A stretch of 64,000 nt of DNA, taken from the NCBI GenBank assembly GCA_023920165.1, contig CP089278.1, positions 2,294,001-2,358,000 of the forward strand. The letters are read 5' to 3'. Source of the stretch: Curvularia clavata. Lineage: Eukaryota. A program made the position numbers and the translations under genes. The notes beneath the pieces were generated by a model that saw nothing but the letters and a program-made list of their open reading frames with translations, had not been told where the DNA came from and did not search any database. How positions within the stretch are numbered: position 1 is the stretch's first letter; each line of letters begins with the position of its first letter. Positions 13,401 through 64,000 of the stretch are shown piece by piece.

Positions 13401-15259
13401 TGCCATGCCAAAGTTGGGATAGGCACGTAGAGTATGGGTGAGTAAAGTCCCCACTCTTTCGGAGTGACGCACGGTCTCTAATACAGATCACGGGCTGGGA
13501 AAATGCTCTCATCTCCAAATTGATTGGGGAGGGAGGCAGGTGATTTGAACGCATTGGCTGGAATATTCAAGCGTGTTGTTGCGCCCCCTCCGTGAAGCGG
13601 TCTGGGGGCGAAGGGGGTTCGTCTAGATAAGACAGTTTCACACAATACAAAGAGTCTCGCTGCCCAACGTTTGACGGTTGCAAGCACCCTGAACCTTCAG
13701 AAAAATGTATGCACGTTCGTACATTCCCTTTTTCGGATGAGTGGACCAAGACGGCTTAGCCTGCAGGACCCTTGGGAACCTTGCTGGAGACAGGAGAAGG
13801 CCGATGTAACAGGATACACCCATACACACTTATCCCCTCGCTCGAATGATGCCCAACGCAAGCGACATAGACGCTTGTGGAATAGATGGCACGGCACGCT
13901 TGACTACGAGTCAGACAGCACCTGGTTCGTGATGCGGCAGGCAGCCCAGCATAGCACGTAGGGTGGCTATGGAATAGAATGCGCAATTGAGGTCCATGTA
14001 ATGTCGTGCAGCAGTTGTCTAGAGAGCGGACCCACCAGAGCGCCCTGGAACGAAAGCTTGGTCGGAGTCTGGCTGGCCGTGTCAATCAATGCCTTTTTTG
14101 TCGGCGATGTAAAGTCGTTGGTTATGGTGATTTTTTCTGTTGGTTTTGATGGAAGAACTAGAGGTGCGTGAAGTGGATACATGGGTTTTGTTCGGTTCAA
14201 ACTAAAGGAATCAGAGTATCTAGTTAGCTATAGGCTAAGTTGCTTTTAGTACCAAACGGAGTTACACAACATTAAACTGTTGCTGTTTACAACGCTTTGC
14301 CTTGAACTCGCTTTGACCTGCTACTATCGAATACATTGATCGACCAAGTAGACTACGTGTATTTTTTTCTGTCGTGCTTGATGGCTGGCTTTGTCGCTAC
14401 TGTGTTTGAAGCGAGCACTGTATAAGACGATCCGATAGGTAGACGTTTACACACTCGCACTTAAGCGCCATATTCACAATGTCAGTGAAGGTGTGGTGTG
14501 ACACTAGATACCGTGTACAGTTCGAATAGTCGTGGGCAGATAGGTATGGGCTGAGAGCATGGTCAGCTGTTCTTGTTTGTTTGTTTTTTTCTCCGCCTAA
14601 GCTACTTCGTCATTGCTTCACTGGTCACTGGACTGCCATTGCTCTTTCCCTCGCACATCCCTCTAATCCAATCTGCTCCTAACTTCGAATATCTCTTTCC
14701 TCTCATAATATGTCACACCTTGTCGAAGTATTCTATATTTCTTGTTTCCGACCGCCTGGACTTTTCAATCCATCCGTGTAACCTTCTCCTATAGGCTCAC
14801 TGCCCTGCTGTCCTCTCACATTCTCGCTACCACTCACTACTATTAGCTTGGACGTGCGCAAAATGCTTCTAAACCGTATCTTATCGGGATACGGCAAAGC
14901 TATGTCACTTGTGCGACTGTGACTCTATGAGCTATGATTACCTATCATCGTGCCTGGAAGGACGGTCGCGAGATCTTTTGACCACACTGTACAACCATCA
15001 ACCTACGTCGTGAATTCACACCAAGCAGCAAACACACTTTTTATTTATATTTCATCTATGCGCCCTAGCTGACCATAATTTCTCACGCTACGTCTCGTAA
15101 CACCGGACCGCACTTGACTTCACCTGTGACAACACAGAAAAACAAAAGCAGTGGCGACGCGTCGATATATTCCTGCCCCTTTCCCAACCTGCCCCAAGCT
15201 ATCTTCATTCTCTCTACCATCCTCAACATCTCATAGCCAAGTCATCCTACACCGAGTAC

Positions 15260-16138
15260 ATGTCTAGGCCTCACTACTCGGAGGCCCGTTACCCCAACCC
15301 CTACGACGAAGCATCGTTTCCCGCACCAAGCAGCCCTGCCAAACCCGTACAAACAGTCATATGGAAGCACATCAGACTAGTACAACCACCGCAGCAAGAC
15401 TGCATACCACGCACGCGCAACCCTAAGGTGGTGGCGAGCAAACACGTGCACTTCGACCTGCCTCCCTATCGACCAAGCACAACCCGAACGACGAGAATAA
15501 CCACCGAAGAGATGGATATGCAAAGGCTCAGAAGAGAAGAAAAAGAAATGCTGCGCCCTCTGCCACGTCAACACATGACCCCCTCCCAAGGACACCAAGA
15601 CCACATACCAAGGACGCTGTATCCCTCGATGCGTCCAATCCCCAAGCCCAACCGACCAACCATCTACATCATCACCTTCGCCGCGGACCTCATCCGCAGC
15701 GAGTCTTCGACTACCGCTCTCCTCGCTTCTCAAGTCCCACAACGTCACCCCCCGATTCCGCATCTCTACACCATTGACGCACGCAACATGCGTCCACCGC
15801 CGCCCGCCATGTGCGACCGCTATTCAGGTATCTCCCCCGTCCTTCAAGAAGTGGTGATGCAAGACTCTGGCGCTAGGATGGCTGTTCGCAAAGCAGTTAA
15901 GGAGCTGCTGCGGTTCGGAGACAGAGAGAAGAGCAAGGAGAGAAGGAGACGTGGCACTGGGAACATGGAAGTGAGTATGAGTGTGTGTTGTCACGCGGGC
16001 ACACACCGTAGTGTGGCTATTGCGGAGCGCATAGCGCAGAGTGTTAAGAAGGAGGTGGGCAGGTTAGGATGTGAGGAGGGCGTTAGGGTCGTATGTCGTC
16101 ATGTTCATCGGATCAAGGGCAGGGCGGACCCTTTTTGA
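15260..16138 (+). CDS. Intronless protein with a C-terminal RapZ/YvcJ (UPF0042) C-terminal-like domain
   Basis: 292 aa ORF. The C-half reads IYIITF...YTIDARNMRPP...YSGISPVLQEVV...SVCCHAGTHRSVAIAERIA...VCRHVHR, matching in order the RapZ-CTD pattern (FDVRFLPNP...TG...IGCTGGxHRSVxxAExL...HR). The N-half is Pro/Arg-rich and low complexity. Confidence 0.75.
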   Translation: MSRPHYSEARYPNPYDEASFPAPSSPAKPVQTVIWKHIRLVQPPQQDCIPRTRNPKVVASKHVHFDLPPYRPSTTRTTRITTEEMDMQRLRREEKEMLRPLPRQHMTPSQGHQDHIPRTLYPSMRPIPKPNRPTIYIITFAADLIRSESSTTALLASQVPQRHPPIPHLYTIDARNMRPPPPAMCDRYSGISPVLQEVVMQDSGARMAVRKAVKELLRFGDREKSKERRRRGTGNMEVSMSVCCHAGTHRSVAIAERIAQSVKKEVGRLGCEEGVRVVCRHVHRIKGRADPF

Positions 16139-35684: not shown

Positions 35685-37312
35685 ATGTCTAGCCTGGTCG
35701 CACGGCTGGAAGAGCGCACCAGAGTGGCCGCGCAGTCAGCTCGACACTACTGCACCAAGACACAGGGCGAACTGCGCATGGCTCTCAGAGACACCACGCT
35801 GTCCCCTAAAGCATCACTTTACATTGGCCTCGTCATCGTCACATGCATCTGGCTCGCCATCGCATTCACGCGTCACGTGCGTTCACGAAGAGCACGACGC
35901 AACAGCACTCGACCCAGTACCCCGAATCTCGAAAAACGGTCACCATTGCGGGCGCCGGAGCGACAATTTGGCGGTAAGTCCCAAAATGGTTTCTACCATT
36001 TCTCCTTCTCTCCCTCTCTTTCTCTCTCTCTCTCTCTATCGAAATCGACAATCTAATCAAAGGCTATATAGAATGGCGACCTCACCCCTTCATCCGCCCA
36101 CAGGCCTCGCCCTACCCCAATTGGTCTCTTACAGAGACCAAACCCCTCCCCTACCGGCCCTTCCGCTACGGTCCCAAGTACAACATTACCATGGGTTTGC
36201 GCAGCATGCATTGGGACGAATGGATCGAGCTGGACAACGAGTATCTGCGGTACCATTCACTCAAAGCGTCTCGCATCGCGTCCCGAGGCGACAAATGCAT
36301 CAAGACGGCACCGCAAGCATGGGATGCGGCGGTCGAGTTGCTCGAGGAACTCGCAGCGTACCTGCCTGAACGGTATCCGAGTTTGTTTGGCAAGACGCTA
36401 GAAGGGTTTTTGAAGAATCTGGCGACAAATGAGATGTTTGATGTGCAGCGGCTGGAGAGGAATGGTGAGAGAGAGGATCCGATGGCGCTTTGTGCAAGGT
36501 TGGTGCAGGATGATCTGGCGATTATGATGGAAGGGGCTGATGGACAGTACTATCTCCTTGCTGGGGCGATTTTGTTGCCAGGCTTTTGGAGGCTGCAGGA
36601 TAAGTTTGGCATGGGGTTGAGTGAGATTCATACGAGTGGGGATGTGCCGGGGTATGTGGTCTCTACCTTTTCCGACTTTCTGGTTTTTGTTCAATGGGTT
36701 GTAGTATGGGATGCGAATGGCTAACGTGGGCTTTACAGATTCAAGGAGAAGCTGGAAAAGGGCATGATGAATTTCTTCCGGAGGATTCAGCCGCCGAGTC
36801 CCATGCTGCGGAATAACTACTTTATCCAGGTGGATGATGGGCTGGCGTGGAGCGAGAGCATTGGGAGTGAAGATGCGACTGCAGAGGGAGAGGTGGGGTG
36901 GTTTACGGCGGAGAAGAACAAGGCAATTGAGCATCACTATTTCCGGAGTGAAAGGCAGAGCTTGAGACGGTATGTTTGCTGTTCAATTTCTTGTTTGTCC
37001 TTGGCTCGTTTGCTTCTTAGTTGGAAAAGTGTCACATGTCTAACTTTGCACAGACTGCCTAGATCGGGAGGCGTCGTGTTTACCATCCGAACCTACATGC
37101 ACCCCATCACGAGTCTTGCACAGGAACCATATGTACCTGGTCGTCTGGCCAGTGCCGTGCGGTCCTGGGGCGATGATGTGAGTCGCTACAAGGGAAAAGA
37201 GAGATACGGGGAAGTATTGCTCGAGTATCTGGACAGAATGGATGCCGAGCAAAAGGAGCGAGGCATCATTGAAGAGGGCGCTGAGAGGACCGAGACGGGA
37301 TATCCTTTCTAG
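35685..37312 (+). CDS. DUF3445 / heme-dependent oxidative N-demethylase alpha-subunit-like protein, 4 exons (35685-35973, 36072-36651, 36739-36969, 37054-37312)
   Basis: Motifs PLPYRPFR, ITMGL..WIELD, LVQDDLAIM, LPGFWRLQDKFGMGLSEIHTSGDVPG, RNNYFIQ, RSERQSLRRLPRSGGVVFTIRTY; predicted N-terminal TM helix (LYIGLVIVTCIWLAIAF). Confidence 0.85.
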
Positions 37313-53558: not shown

Positions 53559-53630
53559 GCCTTCCTAGCTCAGTGGTAGAGCGCGTCACTAGTAATGACG
53601 AGGTCGTCAGTTCAATTCTGGCGGAAGGCA
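53559..53630 (+). tRNA. tRNA-Thr (anticodon AGT), intronless
   Basis: Acceptor stem GCCTTCC/GGAAGGC, D arm GCTCAGTGGTAGAGC, anticodon stem CGTCA/TGACG with loop CT-AGT-AA, T loop TTCAATT. Confidence 0.97.
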
Positions 53631-53639: not shown

Positions 53640-54611
53640 GCCTTATCACCTCAAGTACAACCAACCGCAAAGCTCTGAGGCCATTCGAGCCCAATTATTT
53701 TGCCAGTACCATCAGATCTTATATTCTCAATTTTGGGTGCATGTAAAGATCTGCTCACGGACACATTGCTTTTTGCAGCAAACCTCAGAAAGTCGGTTGT
53801 ACAATGCGAAAGCACCTTTGTGGCGATCCTGGACATTTCTTCTGGGGTGACGCCTGACTAATCTATGCAGCGCAATACTTCCATATGCAATGCAGTGATC
53901 TCAACACTAAACCTACTACATGACATATTGCTTGACCTTGCGCTGACAAGGAAGAGGCCTGCAGTTTCAGAGGTCGATGCAGTGCTTCACGATCCCCGGA
54001 TCCTCGGTTGGCCAAAATGGGTATACCAGTCGCGTTTTAACCACGTGAGACAGAATTCTCCTGGCAGCAGAAGGCTCATGTGAGGCGGTGTAGACATCAG
54101 CAAAACATCCACAGCTGACTAGTGGTTTCTTGGTCTGATTCAGCCACTCATCTCGCTCAAGTGAGTAATCATGTATAACGAAGAAAGAACAGTCATCCTA
54201 TAGGCCTCGAACGCGGGGAAGCATCTTGAGCATCGTCACAACGTGTAGTTTGGTGGAGCGTCCGAACGGTGATTGTATCTACGCGCAGAGCTGCTGATGG
54301 CCCGGCGGGGAAAATCCTGAGCCAGAGCTCAGGATGAGTGGGGCTGGGCAGCTGCTAGCGCGTCCAGTCGCTAATCCACCGTTCTTCGCATCCCAGCAGC
54401 ATCTCAGAATCTCGAGCCCATGGAAACAGAAATAACCACTGGTCGCACGCTATAGCAACAGGCTGAACTTGCTCGCGGGACTGCGGAGCTTATCCCACCG
54501 GCTTCTCGCGACAAGCCGCGCTGCTTCGCTACCTTATCGCCTGGAAGATCCACGCTTCCGAGTTTTATTTCAGGAAAAGTGTTGTCCCGGTCAATTGCAC
54601 CGCCTGAATCA

Positions 54612-56495
54612 ATGGCCCGCACAACACCTATTCAGAACAGGCCGTACCGCTCGCACAAAGTACCGGCCTGTACAAGATGTCGCTCCCGAAAGATCCGCTG
54701 CCACATCGACATTCCTGGAGAACCATGCCTATCTTGTCGAGAAAGACGACTTAAATGTCAATATGTCGAGGGCTCCAGCACCAGCTCCCCTACAGAAGAA
54801 GGCTCAGATCGGAGGCCCTCAAAGCGACGTCGACACAGCGAGCCAGATGAAGGCCCTTCTCGGCCTCGTTCAGCCCCCATCTTACATAAGAACGTCAACA
54901 ATCCCTCGGCATCCATCATGCTTGCACCACATTTTGCTGAGGACATTGACATCTTCAATCGCCACATTTCGCAGCATCGAAAAGCTGGAGGTGAAGCGGA
55001 GCACTCCAACTACCAAACCTTGTTGCACGATGCCAAAGACCCCGTTGTGTACCTTACCGTACCGAGGTTCCGGACTGGCCTACCACCCAACAGCGGCTGT
55101 GGAAAGGAGCAAGTAGAGATTGTCGAGCAGATCATGGGACCGTTCAAGCGTGAGGTAGTCGAGCTTTACTTTAGCGAGATTCACTATCATTTCCCCGTCT
55201 TGGATGACGAAATGTGTGATACGCTACGAACGAACCAATACGCCAAAGTACCCAATAACCTGATGTGCGTCATCTATGCACTTGCTTCGGCGCATTGGTC
55301 AAAGTCAGATACGCTCAAGATGCATCCTAAACCAAACTCATATTACGTCTGGAACAAGGCCATTTCCGCGACCTTGGAGGATTTTCTCAGCCCCGGTATG
55401 TCGACTTTACAGGCCGCAGTGCTTGATCAGGTTGGCCGTCCTTCAGTTTCTATCATCGGTAACATTACGCTCTGCGGGCGTACTGTTTCTTTGGCTCAAA
55501 CTTTTGGACTTCACAGGGACCCTTCGAAGTGGTCAATCACTGAAAATGAGAAGTCGCTTCGCATCCGCCTCTGGTGGTGCGTTCTTATCACCGACCAGTG
55601 GTCTAGTGTAGCATACGGTGCGCCCCCTTACGTCTCCAAGGGCTATTACGATGTTCCACGGCCAACGGTTGCCTCGCTTATTGGCAACAGAGCAAGTCCG
55701 CAGCAGAAGCAAGCTACCAACTGCTTTGTGCACTTGTGTGGACTGACGGAGCTACTTGCGGAAATCCTGCCTTTTGTCTATCAGATCAACCCAGACCGAT
55801 TACAGCTCGCTCGGGAAATCGATCGTTTCAAGCTTGAGTTGAACGACTTGGAAGCGCAGCTGCCTGAGTGGCTTCCTCTTCCAAATCGACCAGGAACAAC
55901 TATGCTTTGGCTCTCGTTCCTCTCGATCAGACTGGTTCTCGCCCGTGTGATTTTCCGCGCAGCAGTTCTCGATGGGGACGGCAGCATCGGGAGGAACCGG
56001 CTGGATCAGCTACGCATCGCATCTTCTGCTGTTCTTGATTTTATCCTGACAATAGGAGAAACTCAGTTCCTGGATTTTTGGCTTCCGTACGCGACTCATC
56101 TTTTGGTGCAGGCCATTACGGTATCGTTACGCTGTACCGTCGAGACGCAGGATCCTGAAATACGCAACACATCTGTTGCGCGTCTTGAACGCGTTATTGC
56201 ACACATTCAGCATGCGCGGGATAATTACGACTGGGATATTGCAAACTACTGTCTCGAACGGTGTGCTGATCCAGTCTCAAAGATTGCGTCGCTGAACGCA
56301 AGAGAGGTACCGCAACCTTCAGAAACCGAACCCACAAATATCGTAGCGAATGGGAACGGCGGCGAAATGCATGCAATGCCTAATTTCGACGATGCCTCCT
56401 TCCTGCTTTCGGATATTCTCGACCCCAACGCCTTTGACTTTTCCTGGGATGCGTTGTGGGACACACCGTCTGGTATGACGAATTTTTCGATATAG
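54612..56495 (+). CDS. Zn(II)2Cys6 transcription factor with fungal-specific TF domain, intronless
   Basis: ACTRCRSRKIRC...CLSCRERRLKCQY; YFSEIHYHFPVLD; AQTFGLHRDP..EKSLRIRLWW..DQWSSVAYGAP; acidic/aromatic C-terminal activation tail. The first ATG is at 54612. Confidence 0.93.
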   Translation: MARTTPIQNRPYRSHKVPACTRCRSRKIRCHIDIPGEPCLSCRERRLKCQYVEGSSTSSPTEEGSDRRPSKRRRHSEPDEGPSRPRSAPILHKNVNNPSASIMLAPHFAEDIDIFNRHISQHRKAGGEAEHSNYQTLLHDAKDPVVYLTVPRFRTGLPPNSGCGKEQVEIVEQIMGPFKREVVELYFSEIHYHFPVLDDEMCDTLRTNQYAKVPNNLMCVIYALASAHWSKSDTLKMHPKPNSYYVWNKAISATLEDFLSPGMSTLQAAVLDQVGRPSVSIIGNITLCGRTVSLAQTFGLHRDPSKWSITENEKSLRIRLWWCVLITDQWSSVAYGAPPYVSKGYYDVPRPTVASLIGNRASPQQKQATNCFVHLCGLTELLAEILPFVYQINPDRLQLAREIDRFKLELNDLEAQLPEWLPLPNRPGTTMLWLSFLSIRLVLARVIFRAAVLDGDGSIGRNRLDQLRIASSAVLDFILTIGETQFLDFWLPYATHLLVQAITVSLRCTVETQDPEIRNTSVARLERVIAHIQHARDNYDWDIANYCLERCADPVSKIASLNAREVPQPSETEPTNIVANGNGGEMHAMPNFDDASFLLSDILDPNAFDFSWDALWDTPSGMTNFSI

Positions 56496-57371
56496 CAACC
56501 TTGCCGCACACGAAGTCATATGTCTCAAGTCCAGAGACGAGGTCAGCAACAAATGTGTCTTCTACCTCGTATCTTAAACCTCGTTGGCTCGCGTACTAGT
56601 TGAGACGCATACTTGTATGCCTGTATCCCATTCTACCTGGTCACAATGATCATCACAGCGGTTGCGACCGGCTCCAACTAGCAGCCGAGGATTACACGGC
56701 GACAAAAACTACACTACAAATCCGAGCGACTAAGTGTTACTTGTGCAACTTTCAGTGTAGTTGTGGGTTTTGCCTTAGGACATGATTCTCGATTGACCAA
56801 CCGACGCTACACCAAAAAAAGCGCGTTTGTGTTTAATTAAAAGTTGCAGTTTAACCTTCAGAGAAGACCGTGCTTGAAAAATGTTCAAAGCAACGCTTGT
56901 TAGTATTTGGAATACACACTGAGGCTGTTTACTAGCTTGTATATGTTTAATAGTCAGAAGCTACCCTAATAACATTCTGTTGTGGAACTAGCTTCTCCTT
57001 GATAAATTGGTCACCGATCCCAATAAAAGGCTCTCCGCTTCAGATGTGCTGGCGCCGTATGAGTTTCGGGCTCTCAAGAAGGCTATAGGTGCATAGTCTG
57101 TTTGATAACAACAAATTTCTGCATTTGATGTCCAACTACTTCGGCGTGCTGTGTAAGCTGAGGTTTTAGGAATCGATGTCGTGATCCGCTAGTGGCTCTC
57201 CTTATTGGCCATGTCCCTAGCCTCACAGGCGACCCACATCAAAGTCTGTAATCAGTCCACCAACATGGGAGCCCTTGATCTGAATCTCACTCCTCGTTCA
57301 TTCCTACAGTCTTTTTTACTTCACACTCCTTGGCCAAACAAATAGCCCCACAGTGAGACTTTTGGAATAAC

Positions 57372-58792
57372 ATGCCGGCCATGTTCCGCACCGGCGTTTC
57401 CCAACTAGCGGCTGTACGCCCTCTCCCTACATCGAGCCGGGTAGCACCATGTGTTCGGAATCTCGCAACCGTTTCGCCAGTGCAGACGGCTACTCGCAAT
57501 CACAAGATTGTCGTGATCGGTGGTGGCTCAGCCGGCATTGCTCTGTCCCATCAACTGCTCCGTAAAGGAAATTTTGGCCAAGACGACATCGCCATTGTTG
57601 ATCCCGCGGAGTGGCACCACTACCAACCTGGCTGGACCCTTGTCGGTGGTGGTCTGAAGAAGAAAGAAGATCTCCGCCGCCCAATCAAGGATCTGATGAA
57701 CCCCAAGTTCAAATTCTACAACACCGCGGTAGGCAGCCTGAACCCAGAGGAAAACTACATTACCACCAATGCCGGAGAGAAGATTGCGTATGAGCAGCTT
57801 GTTGTCGTGCCTGGAATCATGCTGGACTATGGAGCGGTACCAGGCCTGAAAGAGGCGCTGGAAGAGAAGGAATCAATGGTTTCTACCATTTACGACTATG
57901 CGTACTGCGATAAAGCGTACAGCAACGTGCAAAAGTTCAAAAAGGGAGATGCGGTGTTTACCCAGCCCGCAGGTGTAGTCAAGTGTGCGGGTGCGCCGCA
58001 AAAGATCATGTGGCTTGCGCTGGATTACTGGAAGAATGCTGGTCTGTACAAGCCCTCGTCGTCGGGCGAATCACCAATCAACATTGCCTTTGCGACGGGC
58101 TTGCCAAAGATGTTTGGTGTAGACAAGTACGTTGCCACGACTTAAATCATCAGACGTTACAACACTAACTCCAACCCAACAGATACAGCCAAACACTTGA
58201 AAGGCTTCGCGTTGAGCGCGGTGTCGAAGGTCTCTTCCAACACGACCTGGCGTCCATCTCAGGCAACACCGCCACCTTCAACGTGCCCAACCAGGACCCC
58301 GTAAAGCGCCACTTTGACTTCCTGCACGTGGCACCCAAGAATGTGCCCTGGTCCTTTATCAAGAACAGTGCGCTCGCCAACGAAGCAGGCTACGTTGCTG
58401 TCTCAGACAGCACAACGCAGCACACCAAGTACCCCAATGTGTGGTCCATCGGTGATGCCTCCTCACTGCCTACCAGCAAGACCGTAGCCGCCATTACCGC
58501 CGAAGCCCCCGTCCTCGTGTCCAACTTGCTCAGTCAGATGCAAGGGAAGCCGCTCGAGGCTTCGTACGACGGATACACGTCGTGCCCGCTGCTGACGGGC
58601 GAGAAAGAGGTGCTGCTCGCCGAGTTCAAGTACGGTGGTGTGCCCAAGGAGACGTTTAATGCTCTGCTGGGTATCGATCAGGGCGTCCCCAGGAACGCAT
58701 TCTATTGGCTGAAGAAGGAGTTTTTCCCTTGGGTTTATGGAAAGTATCATGTCAAGGGTGAGTGGGCTGGTCCAAAGGGGCTGGCGAGATGA
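57372..58792 (+). CDS. Mitochondrial sulfide:quinone oxidoreductase (SQOR/Hmt2 type), 2 exons (57372-58126, 58183-58792)
   Basis: Presequence-like N-terminus; FAD fold VVIGGGSAG; YQPGWTLVGGG; both catalytic Cys motifs (KCAGAPQK and GYTSCP); NVWSIGD..PTSKT; LAEFKY..KETF. Intron 58127-58182 is in frame. Confidence 0.93.
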
Positions 58793-59272
58793 GAAAGGGC
58801 CGAGGGTGGGGGGTTGTAACATGGGTGCGTTTGTGCTCAAGCATGGATAAGAAATTAGGTCATCCAGCTTGACATAGAGTGCTTTGAGGTGGTAACTTGG
58901 TTCTGTGCAAGGGAAGAAGGGAGATAGCGTACAGAGGGGAGGTCGCTAGTATTTTGGATTTATTACATAGCGAGGCACAGATAAGGGAGAAAGTAACATA
59001 TACCCTGATAATTATCATACAATTTTGATCTAGCAACGAAAACCAGTTCTTCTAAGACACATGATATTGAGTCACCCAGTTCGACATATCAGTGCAACAG
59101 ATATTACAACAACTTCATCACAGTCATGTCACAGCCAAGACATCAACATGTGAAAAGCAAACTTAACTCGTTCAATCTTATATACATAGCCTCCATACTC
59201 ATGATTCCTCCCACCACTCGATTCAATCTCATCCCTACTACAAATACACACATACACCCTTTCTCCCCTTCC

Positions 59273-61547
59273 CTACAAGCGTGACAAGCCAACCACCTCC
59301 CTGGGCGCATGGTAAGTCGGCACCTTCATATCGAGCGCGCTACCACTGTAACCAAGGTCCTCAGCGGTAAGGACGGCGCACTTCTCACCAATGAGCAGGG
59401 CAGTCGAGTACGTGTTGCAGCCGACGTTGTCGGGACAGATGGACAGATCGGCGACCTTGAGGCCCTTTACGCCGTGGACGTTGAGGCGCTCGTCGAGAAC
59501 ACCGTGCTTGACGATGGAGTTGCCGTTCTTAGGGGCCATGGAACACGTGCCGAGGGAGTGCCAGGTGGTTTCGACGTGGCCTATATGAGAGAGTTAGCTA
59601 CTGTTGCCTGATGGGGTTTGTACAGAAGGGAAGGGAGAGACGTACGCTTGACCCAGTCTTCAACGTGCTTGATATCTTCGTTGGTGTATTGCAAGTCCTC
59701 AAAGACTTCTTGCTGGTTGGAGTTCAAGAATGTGGGCTGAGGGACGCGGCCTTTCTCCAAGGGCGCGGTCCAGGAGCCATGTTGAATACCAGCGGAGAGG
59801 TTGCCAGGGAGAGCGTATGCGTTGGTGGTAGCAAGATCCATGTCGCGTGCACGGGCTGGGCTGTCATAAGCATAGAAGGGATGCATGGCTTGAACCTCTC
59901 CGGCGTAGGCGTCCATTCGGCGGGCAGTCTCACGGGACTTGATGTATCCCCAAACCATGGGAGCCATGTCTCGCTTGTCATTCATAAATCCGGCATCAAA
60001 GTCCGGTGCCTCATACGGGTTGGGCGAGACAATGTGTGTAGAACCACGAGAGAAGGGATACTCGAGGAAGTGGAACATGGTGAAGAACTTGCCTGGTGGC
60101 ATGACCATGTGGTCACCGAACCAGCCTGCAATGACCGAGTAATGCATTACTGGCTTGTCTGGTTTGTTCTTGAAGTAGGAGTCCCAACCAGAGCGGAATT
60201 CCTTGCATGGCCAACTGTCCATCATCTTGAGTTCTTCCTCAGTAGGCCGGATCTTGACACCAGCTTCGATACCATTGGTGGCAAGTGGACCAGTGCCATT
60301 GATGTTCCACTGCTGGAAGACTTGTTCTTGCACCTTGGGGTCACCACGGACGAAGTCGTCAAACGACTCTACATGTGGCTTCGCGCGGTACGTGGCGAAG
60401 GTCAGGCTAGGACTTTGTCAACCAAACTGTTTTAGTGCGCGCTGATGTCGACTTACTAGTGGTCCTGGAAGTTGAGACCCACACCAGGAAGGTCAACCAA
60501 GGGCTTCACACCAGCCTTTCGCAGTTTTTCTGGGTCACCGATACCAGAGCGCTGGAGGATGAGCGGTGAACTCAGGGTACCTCCCGAAACAATGATCTGT
60601 TTGCGGGCGCGGATGATCCTAGAGTTGATCTGTCCAGGAGAGACGGGCTTGGTAGGAACAACCTTGACGCCAACAGCTCGATCACCCTCGAGAATAACCT
60701 TTGATTGATCGTCAGCGGCAGTATCAGCCTATAAGAGATGGCTACATACCTTCTCAACCTTGTTGCTGGTCAACAGGTGCAGATTCTGATGAACGGCACG
60801 GGTGCTGTGAATGTAACCGTGGGCAGAGTCAGAGCGACGTCCGGTGTCACGGTTGATCCACTTGAGCCAGTGCTCAGCACCATGGCCAGTGACCAAGTCC
60901 TGAAGGTCATCGGTAGTTGGAATGCCCTGAGACTCTGTGGCACGGAGGAAGTCCTCCTTGATAGGATAAGTATAGTTACCAAAGGAAACCTTGATGGGTC
61001 CCTCAAATCCGTGAATGTCACGGTTGTTGCAGGCACGCTGGTAAGTCTCGTGCTTCTTCATAAGAGGAATGAGTTCCTTAGTGGTCCAACCCTTGGCCTG
61101 GAAGTCATCGTAATCTGAAGCCGAAGCACGAGTGTACATCTGGGTTTTGTTAATCCCATCACTGGCTGTCTTCTGACTGTGCATAGCGTACCATGAAATT
61201 AATGGAAGACCCGCCTCCGAGAATGTGTGCACAGGGCACAACAGCACGGCGTCCATCGAGCCATTCCGAAGGCCTGGAATAGTAGAAGGAGGCAGTCTTG
61301 CTGTCCAACTTCATGTTCCTTGGGTAGATACCCGGGCGGAAGACCCATGGATTGTTCAGGTTGTTCTCACCAGCCTCAATCAAGAGGACCTGGAGATTAT
61401 GGTCAAGATTGGCCAAACGGCCAGCGACGACACATCCGCACGATCCTCCACCACACACGATAATATCAACCTTTTCCTCGTCAGCAACTGAGTCCAGTCC
61501 ATTGGGAGCTGGTGGCCTGAACACCGTACCTCGTCTGGGATCGTCAT
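59273..61547 (-). CDS. Peroxisomal alcohol (methanol) oxidase, GMC family, 6 exons (61547-61530, 61470-61192, 61139-60750, 60698-60457, 60406-59646, 59580-59273)
   Basis: Spliced N-terminus MTIPDEVDIIVCGGGSCG; ILGGGSSINFMMYTRAS; ETTWHSLGTC; ADLSICPDNVGCNTYSTA; C-terminal PTS1 -SRL. Five introns, all GT..AG and in frame. Confidence 0.95.
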
Positions 61548-62609
61548 CTTGCTGGCTTATGGAGATGTTATGTTGTTGAAACGATATGCAGGTATTGCAA
61601 GTTGACCGCAGGTGAGCAAGTCAACTGGGCATGACAGTCCGTCCATGGGCGAGGAAAAGACGTCCCTTTAAACTGTCAAACCCCGCATGTCCAGGATGTT
61701 TGCGCTCGAAGAGGGCCCACCATGTGGGCTGTGTCAATATGCATTTCTGAAAGCCGTCCATCCGGATAGCATGATGCATGCATAGTGAAGGGGGACCATG
61801 TACCATTTCTCCAACCTATCTGCCCGAATAAGGTTGGTGTATGGGTTTCTAGCCTACATCAAAAGGCCTCATGGGGCCTTGTCAAGGCCATTCAAACAAA
61901 AGCAAGACGATGGACTTGCGGATCCGCAGACAGGCTGTCTCCATACCGGCAGCGAACAAGGGTTGATACAATGGCAACGATTGGTCCCAAGAGCTGGGAC
62001 AAGGTTAGTTCCCAGCATCGGGGTAATGGCCAGGGCGAACTGGGGTGAATGCCCTCATGGTCTCATGTTGGATGACGGGGTGCGGAGAAAGGTCACATCC
62101 AGTAAGGAGACATGCTCGGTTGCGTGTACAGGCCCACCATCAGATGTAAGCTCTGCGGACCCGATCCTGTGAGGTCGAGAACGGCGGGTTTAGGATTCTA
62201 ATTCCAGCGTATCACGTCCTGGCAAGAGACAATGCACAAGTTTGTGACGAGGAGCGAGCGGCATGTGCAACGAAGTAATCGAGATGAATCGCAGTCCAAT
62301 AATGATCTACATGGAATTGAGTTGCCGAGTATCCTTGGGAGCTGATGCTGACCAGTGTAGCTGGGTTAATCGCACCGTTTGGTCGTCCTTGAAGCTTCAC
62401 CATGGTACCCGGCTGACAGTACTCAGCGACCATACACCTGTGGGTAAGCACTGTTGGGGGTATGTTTGTCTGCGGGGAGCAAGCGGCGCTGACGTCCTTT
62501 CAGAGACAACCTCTCTCTCGTGGAAGAATGCGGATGTGGGGTGCAGGACATCCTGTGCTTCATGCTGGGAGGGGACTATACCTTGGCGTGAACGCTAATG
62601 CCGGAAAGT

Positions 62610-62625
62610 GCGGGGTCAGCCCCGC
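62610..62625. promoter_or_regulatory. Inverted pair of CreA/Mig1-type SYGGRG sites upstream of alcohol oxidase
   Basis: GCGGGG-TCAG-CCCCGC. Confidence 0.45.
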
Positions 62626-63681
62626 CTGGCGTACGGAGAAGTAATAGACCAGCCACTCCGACGATCTCCTGCAGAAGCGCCATGGGTTCCGCCGTTATCA
62701 TGGCTGACGACAAGTTTTTGATGCCTACCTATTGTTAGATATATCCGGAGCTACAAGCTATCCAATGTCCCAAGTGGCACAGTATGCTCTTGCCCCCAGA
62801 CACAAGCAAGGTTCAGAACGTGGCCACCATTCATTGATATGATTGAAGGAACAGAATGACCCATGGCTTTGGTTAGGATTCTAACAGTCTGGACGATATT
62901 GGCTGCGGGTTTGCGGAGATCAGGAGCCTTCTCGGCGCACCAAGGATTGTCAGCTATTGCTAATAGAGCGCGAGGCTGCTCGATCGAGAAGACACCCAGC
63001 GGTGGTACGAGGATCGTGTTTTCTCCTTTGCCGGTCATATGCAAGCCCACGGCGTGTCTGCTGTTCCTCCACTTAGGTCGGTGTAGACTCCTTTCGGGTA
63101 CATTCAAATGGCAGAAATCTCCACCTCAATGCAAGTCAGCAGCATTGTTCAAAGTCTCTTGCGTTGAGGTTCGAGATGAGGCAGCCACGCGGGGCGGGAA
63201 CTTTCCGGTCAGTACCTGGTCCTTGTGCAGTGCGGTTCAGCCCTGGTCTAGTTCCTATCCCGAGACTTGTCAGTTTGCGGGGCGGATACTACTGATCCGC
63301 GCGGTCCTATTCTGAAAGTTTATCAGTCTTTGAAAGCCTTCAGCCTTGTCCAGTAAATAGCACATCACTGACGCTTCGTATGGAATAGAGTGAGGGAGTT
63401 TGTATCGAACTGCAGATCCGTGTCTGAACGTTTTCAGCTAGCATTCGACCCAGTGCGGACCCGACCAACCTGCAACAGGCTTTCATTAGTCTCGAAATGG
63501 TACAAGTACCTAAATCATACACTCTCGTCGTATGTTACAATATCCTCCACCATATTGGTATCCGTTTTCTAGAAACATTTAATCTAGTAACGCCAGGGAT
63601 GCAATGTGAAAAGAACTAAGAAAGAAAACAAGAGAAAGACCAATGTCCGGCAGTTCAAGGAGAAACAAGGTAAATCAAATC

Positions 63682-64000
63682 TCAGATGACCTCGTGTCTT
63701 TCCCAACCAGTTGGCTTTTGGTGTGCAAGGTCCTTGGTTGGGTGTGGCAGCTCGGGATTCCGGTACTCGCTAACGTACGGGTTGGGGTCTTCCTTTTGAT
63801 CGAGGTTACCGAAGGTATGGTTAACTTCTCGATGCTTACTCTCGTCTGCGCGGACTGGGATAATATTAGCGTGGCCAACACTGCATATCCATAATGAGGT
63901 ACATACTGTAGAGAAGCAAATCGCGCATTGTGCGGTGGCCTTCTGGCATTTTCCAGTAGTCGACCGCGATTTCGGGAGCCTCCATCTTTTCCCACTTGGG
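63682..64000 (-). CDS. aod-1: Alternative oxidase (ubiquinol oxidase), 3' part only; intron 63855-63906; the gene continues beyond the window
   Basis: Not shown in the ORF track in the correct frame. Manual translation gives [57 protein letters not shown]...[10 protein letters not shown], containing the last di-iron ligand motif RADExxH. Confidence 0.92.

Follow-up and report, generated by a model that had tools for sequence, protein, structure and literature searches.

Sulfide:quinone oxidoreductase (SQR) passes electrons to ubiquinone, and alternative oxidase (AOX) re-oxidises ubiquinol. A sulfide-insensitive alternative oxidase is known from sulfide-exposed invertebrates. In plant pathogens, AOX blunts respiration-inhibitor fungicides, and to our knowledge the question of why fungi retain the enzyme is still open. 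Bacterial sqr-pdo(-rhodanese) operons, in which SQR is accompanied by a persulfide dioxygenase (PDO), are reported to have persulfide-sensing repressors (PMC5702731, PMC9163753). Work on Schizosaccharomyces pombe reportedly places SQR in the synthesis of cysteine and in supersulfide metabolism (PMC8577491, PMC13082054). Raised endogenous H2S in Ustilago maydis is described as leading to KCN-resistant, octyl-gallate-sensitive AOX respiration (PMC13266210); induction of SQR is not reported in the main text of the U. maydis H2S-AOX papers, the supplements of which may hold proteome tables.

Gene content of the locus

The window (the whole stretch of DNA analysed, 64,000 nucleotides) ended in four consecutive genes across 54612-64000, in the order Zn2Cys6 factor, SQR, alcohol oxidase (AO) and AOX, with a tRNA-Thr about 1 kb before them. 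The original prediction had placed four such genes after a tRNA; all four were confirmed, and the identities given to them were correct as judged by Pfam, PDB matches and spliced ORFs. The features were as follows.

53559-53630, + strand: tRNA-Thr (AGT), called by ARAGORN; left landmark, outside any module
54612-56495, + strand: Zn2Cys6 factor (TF_win), 627 aa, intronless; ORF, Pfam, unspliced RNA contig and homologs
57381-58792, + strand: type II SQR (SQOR/Hmt2-like), 451 aa, paralog SQR-A; PDB matches, RNA-supported intron and spliced ORF
59273-61547, - strand: AO, AOX1/MOX-type alcohol (methanol) oxidase of the GMC family, 665 aa; Pfam, 5hsa and spliced RNA contigs
61548-63681, - strand: AO-AOX spacer, no coding ORF; negative Pfam search, tblastx, RNA contig and ORF scan
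63682-64000, - strand: AOX, last 88 codons and stop; translations, weak Pfam match, 91-97% identity to the AOX of L002 and L010, and intron

The introns of the window genes were confirmed by public RNA contigs, and all four genes were transcribed in RNA run X1. The RNA runs consisted of Logan contigs and were chosen by the AO gene, and their depth cannot rank genes, so they were used for presence and splicing only. Runs X9, X15 and X19 contained deep, full-length AO contigs and scraps of the factor, SQR and AOX, at depths that do not rank the genes, and the uncovered parts in X15 and X19 carry no evidential weight.

The SQR gene had its ATG at 57381, a single intron (58127-58182) and its stop at 58792, as supported by RNA contigs and the spliced ORF. 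Human SQOR (6oi5) was matched by exon 1 (E 5e-41) over chain residues 3-203 and by exon 2 (E 4e-35) over residues 201-401, which amounted to full-length similarity. The segments VKCAGAPQK and YTSCPLLTG aligned to the human redox-cysteine motifs, in which the cysteines are Cys201 and Cys379. A type II SQR is expected to carry an N-terminal GxGxxG FAD motif, and GGGSAG was found near the N-terminus. In addition, the N-terminal 45 residues were basic and hydroxylated and, judged by eye, presequence-like. The nearest named SQR was that of Bipolaris maydis, with 89% identity. As judged from its sequence, the window copy is a type II SQR, probably mitochondrial, that has kept its catalytic motifs.

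The AO gene ran on the minus strand from ATG 61547 to a stop at 59273 with five introns (59580-59644, 60407-60456, 60697-60747, 61140-61191 and 61469-61527), and full-length spliced RNA contigs were present in X15 and X19. The Pfam search showed GMC_oxred_N and GMC_oxred_C domains, one AO exon alone matched Komagataella AOX1 (5hsa) at E 6e-108, and the protein was conserved at 88-99% among the relatives' loci. The C-terminus was -SRL, which is PTS1-like (consensus (S/A/C)(K/R/H)(L/M)); AO is therefore probably peroxisomal, being of the AOX1 type with such an end, and its compartment probably differs from that of SQR and AOX, which are expected in the mitochondrion. The GMC domains, the 5hsa similarity and the PTS1-like end are common to the window AO and to AOX1/MOX of methylotrophic yeasts and filamentous-fungal AO (5hsa, 6h3g), and no feature set the window AO apart from that family. 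It reads throughout as a family-typical, orthodox AOX1-type methanol oxidase. A thiol-oxidase role was not indicated and a literature search found no support for methanethiol as an alcohol oxidase substrate, so the idea that AO oxidises methanethiol or other thiols is unsupported.

Among the ORFs of at least 110 aa in the 2.1 kb AO-AOX spacer, none had a Pfam match. Two spacer islands, at 61828-62175 and 62490-62630, were kept in L002 and L010 (tblastx), and AO has its own conserved promoter islands. One unbroken RNA contig in X1 spanned the spacer and contained a minus-strand intron at 63312-63372. The AOX codons in the window, on the minus strand, were 64000-63907 and 63854-63685, separated by an intron at 63855-63906 and followed by the stop at 63684-63682, and the remainder of the gene lay beyond the window end. 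The fragment scored 19.9 bits against the PF01786 cut-off of 22.7 because merely 88 codons were present. L002 and L010 carried complete AOX genes, which were 91-97% identical to the fragment and matched Pfam at E 1e-51. AOX carries four di-iron ExxH or E motifs, of which the last one alone fell inside the window fragment; the LEEEA and NERMHL motifs were present in the L002 and L029 AOX genes.

TF_win was a single ORF from ATG 54612 to a stop at 56495 with Zn_clus (aa 19-53) and Fungal_trans (aa 184-370) domains, and the X1 RNA contig 54001-57023 was unspliced over it. It is uncharacterised, with homologs restricted to Pleosporales and found throughout that order. In nine named species, the ortholog of TF_win and SQR were on contigs of differing size and thus on different contigs; the contigs were of equal size in Decorospora, Clathrospora and Plenodomus tracheiphilus. 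TF_win lay beside SQR in the window and in L003, L005, L011 and L012, and was not found in the 4-8 kb of flank of L002, L004 and L008. From its distribution, TF_win is taken to be an older Pleosporales gene that predates its SQR adjacency. With orthologs on contigs apart from SQR and the gene absent from three relatives, the claim that the adjacent C6 factor is the regulator found no support; TF_win may nonetheless regulate SQR-A, since their adjacency has persisted between L012, a Plenodomus-like locus, and the window.

SQR neighbours in other fungi

A single adjacency in one genome is not above chance, because the windows and gene pairs surveyed were numerous, and the weight must therefore come from comparison with other genomes. 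Of 59 SQR loci outside the window clade, 15 had a divergent PDO on the upstream side of SQR, at a distance of 0.2-1.6 kb; where the upstream flank was 1.5 kb or longer, it was present in 12 of 25 loci. This PDO resembled the bacterial-like type II enzyme (4ysk, E 2e-54) and not ETHE1 (4chl, E 9e-10). In Neocucurbitaria VM-36 and in Paecilomyces variotii, PDO and SQR likewise had neighbouring locus tags. On these gene orders, the usual fungal SQR neighbour is PDO. A Zn2Cys6 factor of another family stood beside PDO-SQR in L013, L014, L026 and L029. TF_win was considered as kin of that factor and rejected, as only the 35-residue zinc cluster aligned, at E 1e-3.

The absence of PDO and rhodanese from the window, as the original prediction had it, was borne out by Pfam and by tblastn of the window: no Lactamase_B ORF was present, three fungal PDOs gave no tblastn match even at E 1, no rhodanese domain occurred among window ORFs of at least 110 aa, and the rhodanese fusion of L029 had no match in the window. 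PDO was not found on L002 or L010 either. Two SQRs each were present in Bipolaris maydis (89% and 68% identity to the window SQR) and Decorospora (82% and 68%), and the SQR-B copy of Decorospora was on a PDO contig. The SQR tree placed clade A, which holds the window SQR, apart from the PDO-linked clade B; this tree and a second one came from fast IQ-TREE searches, in which branch support was by SH-aLRT alone. Clade A orthologs outside Pleosporaceae, in Neocucurbitaria, Lophiotrema and Amniculicola, were PDO-linked. Pleosporaceae thus appear to carry two SQR genes, of which the window copy, SQR-A, is without PDO and SQR-B keeps PDO elsewhere. By analogy with these relatives, SQR-B and PDO are inferred in the window's own organism.

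The close-relative loci were metagenome contigs. Wherever such a locus extended beyond 500 bp on the AO side of SQR, AO adjoined SQR (four of four loci: L002, L003, L004, L010), and AOX was present in both loci reaching far enough (L002, L010). SQR was inverted relative to AO and TF_win in L002, L003, L004 and L010, and a shared promoter architecture was not preserved. An unrelated IBR gene (window 47.8-49.3 kb) was likewise retained in L002, L004 and L008, at no more than about 4 kb from SQR. AO and TF_win were near SQR only in the window clade, and SQR-B loci of the same family had neither. Microsynteny thus upheld the proximity of SQR and AOX and not the four-gene membership, given the absence of TF_win from L002, L004 and L008. 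The four genes as one module are unsupported, and AO and the factor look like bystanders. Counting against a plain synteny reading, AOX-AO-SQR was retained between relatives with SQRs only 83-90% identical, and the fungal class concerned is known for rapid gene-order shuffling.

The predicted proximity of SQR and AOX also recurred independently on L029, a locus outside the Pleosporales SQR clade in the tree. There, AOX was directly beside PDO, PDO was divergent from SQR, and a Zn2Cys6 factor and a rhodanese-fused gene for an Npsr-like CoA-persulfide reductase were present too. Flanks of 5 kb or more were available for 24 loci outside the window clade; these represent 19 lineages and about 0.28 Mb of flanking sequence, in which L029 alone carried AOX. 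The chance expectation of such an AOX neighbour over the flanks examined was about 0.01, if the genome is assumed to measure about 35 Mb and to hold one or two AOX genes. As L029 is unrelated and the chance value is this low, it appears that SQR-AOX linkage has at least two separate origins.

The motif CGGN7CCG, which we take to be the Neurospora-type AOX induction motif, was not enriched in the window (11 sites against 15.7 expected); one site overlapped the SQR start codon and another was in the AO-AOX spacer. No conserved 7- to 9-mers were common to six SQR-A upstream regions and those of two AOX and three AO genes, in a comparison of low power with shuffled-control means of 0.01-0.12 and the L010 AOX start off by 3 bases.

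Explanations for the gene neighbourhood

We lean towards the block being family-level synteny of a Pleosporaceae-type fungus and not a dedicated four-gene sulfide/thiol module. The inverted SQR, the often missing factor and the kept unrelated flanking gene fit inheritance rather than selection. SQR-A would have lost, or never had, its PDO neighbour and would have come beside TF_win in the lineage of Leptosphaeriaceae plus Pleosporaceae, and SQR-B, at another place in the genome, would have retained PDO and a Zn2Cys6 factor distinct from TF_win. SQR-A would oxidise H2S and pass electrons to ubiquinone, the persulfide product would be handled by an unlinked PDO, and complexes III and IV would re-oxidise ubiquinol, with AOX doing so when complex IV is inhibited by sulfide. 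The biochemical logic from SQR through ubiquinone to AOX, as predicted, is correct by established chemistry. A four-gene cluster under the Zn2Cys6 factor, with AO supplying sulfide from methanethiol, would account for consecutive genes all transcribed in X1 and for the TF-SQR adjacency in the window and four other loci, and clusters of such a type exist in fungi, given the other-family Zn2Cys6 factor beside PDO-SQR in L013, L014, L026 and L029. It is nevertheless very improbable: the factor was missing from L002 and L004, where AO was seen, and from L008, which had no upstream flank; its orthologs predate the adjacency, and it is unrelated to the PDO-SQR-linked factor beyond the zinc cluster. 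Furthermore, the well-conserved, AOX1-like AO with its PTS1-like end points to another compartment than that of SQR and AOX, the literature search gave no relevant paper on AO and methanethiol, and the window has neither PDO nor rhodanese.

There may be a functional advantage in having SQR-A and AOX close together. That the two were kept close as a sulfide-insensitive route from H2S to O2, with AO and the factor as passengers, is possible but less probable than inherited synteny. It draws on established SQR and AOX chemistry, on the AOX-AO-SQR trio of L002 and L010 and on L029, where AOX came next after a PDO divergent from SQR in a replicate expected by chance at only about 0.01 over the flanks examined. 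The U. maydis physiology linking H2S to AOX (PMC13266210) is in line with it. However, AOX was missing near SQR in 18 of the 19 other lineages for which 5 kb or more of flank was available, among them the same family's PDO-linked SQR-B loci L013, L014 and L018; an unrelated peroxisomal gene and the 2.1 kb spacer separate SQR from AOX, SQR orientation was not conserved, the low-power k-mer comparison showed nothing in common, and the unrelated IBR gene was conserved as well. Neofunctionalisation of SQR-A, for example for persulfide or sulfane sulfur in signalling or cysteine metabolism, would make the neighbours irrelevant. Two paralogs per genome, with only SQR-B linked to PDO, and the roles reported for S. 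pombe SQR (PMC8577491, PMC13082054) would suit it. We consider it improbable, as both redox cysteine motifs and the FAD motif were intact, branches were shorter in the SQR-A clade than in the SQR-B clade, making SQR-A the more conserved copy, and the same ortholog was PDO-linked in Neocucurbitaria, Lophiotrema and Amniculicola.

Beyond the window, a broader proposal, which we regard as rather doubtful, is a widely conserved and as yet undescribed fungal sulfide cluster in which type II PDO and SQR are transcribed divergently, frequently accompanied by a Zn2Cys6 factor of their own, and to which AOX was recruited at least two times (L029 and Pleosporaceae SQR-A). If it were true, AOX would be a dedicated terminal oxidase of fungal sulfide respiration and Pleosporaceae would have split the system into PDO-linked SQR-B and AOX-linked SQR-A. 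If the SQR-AOX linkage is selected, sulfide tolerance would be a concrete and genetically testable role for fungal AOX, with consequences for plant pathogens, Bipolaris and Alternaria among them. If the neighbourhood is merely inherited synteny, the value of the analysis is to halt the over-reading of a plausible story.

Comparison with described systems

The window SQR shared its whole-length match, cysteine motifs and presequence-like N-terminus with the animal mitochondrial sulfide pathway (SQOR, ETHE1/PDO, rhodanese, sulfite oxidase) and S. pombe Hmt2. The animal sulfide-oxidation genes are unlinked, whereas the window SQR is near AOX. AOX-supported sulfide tolerance, in sulfide-exposed invertebrates and U. 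maydis, follows the same proposed route of sulfide to SQR, ubiquinone, AOX and O2; in those systems physiology is described without gene linkage, and here a gene neighbourhood without physiology. As in the qa and alc clusters with a pathway-specific Zn2Cys6 regulator, a Zn2Cys6 gene stands beside oxidoreductase genes in the window. Unlike in such clusters, membership varied among close relatives, the enzymes are probably from different compartments, and the low-power upstream comparison gave no shared cis-motif.

The bacterial sqr-pdo(-rhodanese) operons have their likeness in the 15 fungal loci with neighbouring SQR and PDO, to which L029 adds the rhodanese-fused, persulfide-reductase-like gene. 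In contrast to the operons, fungal PDO and SQR are divergently transcribed with a Zn2Cys6 factor replacing the repressors, and the window itself is without PDO. Literature searches found no paper describing a fungal PDO-SQR pair with a Zn2Cys6 factor or two Pleosporaceae SQR paralogs. Independent of the window, the conserved divergent pair with its own Zn2Cys6 factor would be a fungal counterpart of the bacterial operons, and that factor would be a candidate for a eukaryotic transcription factor responsive to sulfide or persulfide.

Gene content and transcription of the four-gene run

The window DNA was fungal and intron-bearing. The four consecutive genes predicted after a tRNA were confirmed by ORFs, Pfam domains, structure matches and RNA-supported introns:

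53559-53630: tRNA-Thr(AGT), before the four-gene run
54612-56495 (+): CDS of the Zn2Cys6 factor TF_win, 627 aa, intronless
57381 (ATG) to 58792 (stop): sulfide:quinone oxidoreductase (SQR), 451 aa, intron 58127-58182
61547 (ATG) to 59273 (stop) (-): alcohol oxidase (AO), 665 aa, five introns, C-terminus -SRL
63684-63682 (stop) (-): alternative oxidase (AOX), last 88 codons only within the window, intron 63855-63906

TF_win carried Zn_clus (aa 19-53) and Fungal_trans (aa 184-370) domains in Pfam. The SQR exons matched human SQOR (6oi5) with E-values of 5e-41 and 4e-35, and the motifs VKCAGAPQK and YTSCPLLTG lined up with the human redox-cysteine motifs. The 88-codon AOX fragment alone scored under the Pfam cut-off and was 91-97% identical to complete AOX genes of related contigs, which scored 1e-51 in Pfam. 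The 2.1 kb spacer between AO and AOX held no ORF with a Pfam domain. The original prediction that the window lacks persulfide dioxygenase (PDO) and rhodanese was borne out, as no metallo-beta-lactamase or rhodanese ORF was found across its whole length. The remaining genes were housekeeping genes (ribophorin I, adenylate cyclase, Naf1, Alg9-like transferase, RasGEF and IBR protein). Two further regions showed an ORF with a RapZ C-terminal-like domain (15101-16135, +; E 2e-8) and a haem-dependent oxidative N-demethylase alpha-like domain (35978-37309, +; E 5e-47 and 7e-40); both domain families are more familiar from bacteria.

By its sequence, AO is a typical methanol oxidase of the AOX1 type; a single exon matched Komagataella AOX1 (5hsa) with an E-value of 6e-108, and identity among relatives was 88-99%. 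Its C-terminus was PTS1-like, and the enzyme probably works in peroxisomes, unlike SQR and AOX, which are expected in mitochondria. The proposal that AO supplies sulfide from methanethiol was not supported, and a literature search for alcohol oxidases acting on methanethiol to give hydrogen sulfide returned only a review on screening probes that appeared to be off-topic. A role as thiol oxidase was judged highly improbable. Two islands upstream of AO (61828-62175 and 62490-62630) were conserved at the DNA level in the related metagenome loci L002 and L010 (tblastx, several frames) and are probably AO promoter elements.

Four public sequencing runs (X1, X9, X15 and X19), all as Logan contigs, were mapped onto the window. 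In X1 the SQR and AOX introns and four of the five AO introns were spliced out, so this run is RNA; the fifth AO intron (60407-60456) was spliced in X15, X19 and X9. X1 covered TF_win (54001-57023), SQR, AO, the entire AO-AOX spacer and AOX. The metatranscriptomes X15 and X19 contained full-length spliced AO mRNA, from 59151/59170 to about 61625; TF_win, SQR and AOX were represented there by fragments only. Because AO was the main gene by which the runs were identified, and because genes cannot be ranked by contig depth, the RNA was used only for the expression of the four genes and for the gene models. All four genes are expressed and the models are right. One continuous X1 contig extended from the 5' exons of AO across the spacer (61548-63681) into AOX, with an additional spliced minus-strand intron of 61 nt (63312-63372) in the spacer, where no ORF exceeded 124 aa. 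Possible readings of this spliced transcript are an extended 3' UTR of AOX, a distal start of AO or a non-coding RNA. SQR and AO converge, their stop codons lying 481 bp apart (58792-59273), and an X1 contig spanned both genes, so that their 3' ends probably overlap.

Conservation of the block among close relatives

Scanning metagenomes with SQR exon 2 as query produced 70 loci, onto which the window proteins were mapped by tblastn. In the loci nearest the window, SQR exon 2 identity was 83-90%. AO adjoined SQR in all four near loci whose sequence on that side exceeded 500 bp (L002, L003, L004 and L010), and AOX followed AO in both loci reaching far enough (L002 and L010), again after a spacer of about 2.1-2.3 kb. 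SQR was inverted in all four, giving AOX> AO> SQR> compared with SQR> <AO <AOX in the window. The TF_win ortholog was convergent with SQR in L003 and separated from it by an inserted HET-domain gene in L005. In L002, L004 and L008, TF_win was not found by tblastn in 4-8 kb of flank, its place being taken by GNAT and IBR genes. The more distant L011 and L012 (SQR 72%, TF 83%) had the TF> SQR> order of the window, and no AO was present in the 877 bp downstream of SQR in L011. HET-domain genes lay beside SQR at L005:1541-4040 (-) and L013:7556-9379 (+), which suggests a variable, insertion-prone SQR neighbourhood.

Microsynteny was retained for AOX, AO and SQR, with SQR inverted, and often not for TF_win. 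The window's IBR gene (47.8-49.3 kb), which is unrelated to the block, likewise lay some 4 kb away from SQR in L002, L004 and L008. Conservation of the block was similar to that of the unrelated genes around it, with local inversions, which matches the prediction of descent alone.

Persulfide dioxygenase-linked SQR loci and SQR paralogs

The SQR of locus L029 was 66% identical to the window SQR. The gene order at this locus (Pfam) was Npsr/CoA-persulfide-reductase-like, aminotransferase, DUF1264, AOX, metallo-beta-lactamase, SQR and Zn2Cys6 factor, with the metallo-beta-lactamase gene divergent from SQR. The first gene of this fungal contig (L029:2-1123, +), cut by the locus end, encoded a bacterial-type NADH persulfide/CoA-persulfide reductase ending in a rhodanese domain (3nta, E 5e-94; 8a56, E 1e-84) and may have been acquired horizontally. 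The L014 ortholog of the lactamase-type protein matched 9g8t (E 1e-61) and 4ysk (E 2e-54), and human ETHE1 only with an E-value of 9e-10; on these matches the SQR-linked protein is a type-II-like PDO.

When all loci were searched with the L029 proteins, 15 of the 59 outside the window clade had PDO divergent from SQR and 0.2-1.6 kb upstream of it, as did 12 of the 25 such loci with an upstream flank of 1.5 kb or more:

PDO-SQR loci (fungal or other eukaryotic): L013, L014, L016, L018, L024, L027, L029, L030, L031, L038, L057, L059, L060, L061, L070

AO was found in none of the 59 loci and AOX in one (L029). Pfam domains on the locus flanks (HET, AA9, GH62 and Zn_clus) confirmed fungal contigs, and the same survey found no further sulfur genes. 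A homolog of the L029 Zn2Cys6 factor stood beside the PDO-SQR pair in L013, L014, L026 and L029. TF_win was rejected as this factor, since the BLASTP alignment of the two was confined to the zinc cluster of 35 residues (E 1e-3).

Protein searches placed the window in Pleosporales and found the TF_win orthologs, uncharacterised "C6 transcription factor-like" proteins, only in this order, with identities of 92% in Stemphylium, 87% in Pyrenophora seminiperda and 84% in Cucurbitaria, declining to roughly 56-60% in Massarineae and, for paralogs, to 37-39%. Bipolaris maydis ATCC 48331 and Decorospora gaudefroyi each had two SQRs, whose identities to the window exon were 89% and 68% in the former and 82% and 68% in the latter. 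The 82% copy of Decorospora and the TF_win ortholog were on equally long contigs (113,077), as were the 68% copy and PDO (52,181). SQR and the TF_win ortholog were also on equally long contigs in Clathrospora and Plenodomus tracheiphilus, and on contigs differing in length in nine other Pleosporales species. PDO and SQR locus tags were adjacent in Neocucurbitaria VM-36 and Paecilomyces variotii, and the L014 PDO was 95% identical to an Alternaria protein. Two Venturia SQR homologs (P0289 and P0303; 450 aa, 69-70% identical to the window exon) bore the source name 'Linear gramicidin synthase subunit D', which looks like a misannotation.

A quick tree of 35 SQRs recovered a Pleosporales clade (SH-aLRT 98) made up of two parts, A and B, outside which the L029 SQR fell. 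Clade B (support 99) contained only Pleosporaceae copies and L013 and was PDO-linked. Clade A (support 92) followed family relationships and included the window, beside Bipolaris maydis copy A; its members were linked to PDO in Lophiotrema, Amniculicola and Neocucurbitaria, and to TF_win in Plenodomus and Pleosporaceae. This placement and the paralog linkage identify the window SQR as the PDO-less copy, SQR-A. TF_win predates its position next to SQR. Judging from relatives, a canonical PDO-SQR(-factor) unit would be expected elsewhere in the genome.

Interpretation of the block and comparison with known systems

On balance, the block was considered to be probably a neighbourhood inherited at family level around an SQR paralog without PDO, in which AO and TF_win are bystanders. 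The original prediction was correct in its observation and only partly supported in its interpretation: a four-gene module controlled by the adjacent factor is very unlikely, TF_win being absent from three near loci, while the SQR-AOX link remains as the main rival. Neofunctionalisation of SQR-A, the copy lacking a PDO partner, was also rated very unlikely.

The rival reading, that the SQR-A/AOX pair is functionally favoured, was judged on loci outside the window clade, which as the discovery sample cannot test itself. A total of 24 outside loci with at least 5 kb of flank represented 19 lineages and about 0.28 Mb of flank. AOX lay near SQR in one lineage, L029, where it immediately follows PDO inside a cluster of sulfide/persulfide enzymes; about 0.01 such cases were expected by chance, given 1-2 AOX genes per genome and an assumed genome of about 35 Mb. 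A functional SQR-AOX connection has genuine support here, from a single case. However, AOX was missing near SQR in the other 18 lineages, including the same-family loci L013, L014 and L018 with PDO-linked SQR-B, SQR-A and AOX are separated by an unrelated gene, gene orientation in the block varies among relatives, and low-power tests showed no shared conserved k-mer or CGGN7CCG signal. A favoured pair was rated possible but doubtful, and the inherited neighbourhood was preferred.

The comparison, more than the modest window itself, points to a fungal sulfide-oxidation cluster (PDO-SQR with a Zn2Cys6 factor), apparently undescribed so far, and yields a hypothesis, open to testing, about what AOX does in fungi. 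In the literature found, which lay mostly outside subscription journals, neither this cluster nor the two Pleosporaceae SQR paralogs nor an AOX-SQR linkage was described. Related work dealt with sqr-pdo operons of bacteria, with Hmt2 of S. pombe and with Ustilago maydis physiology. Endogenous H2S in U. maydis induces KCN-resistant, octyl-gallate-sensitive respiration (PMC13266210), which agrees with a functional SQR-AOX connection.
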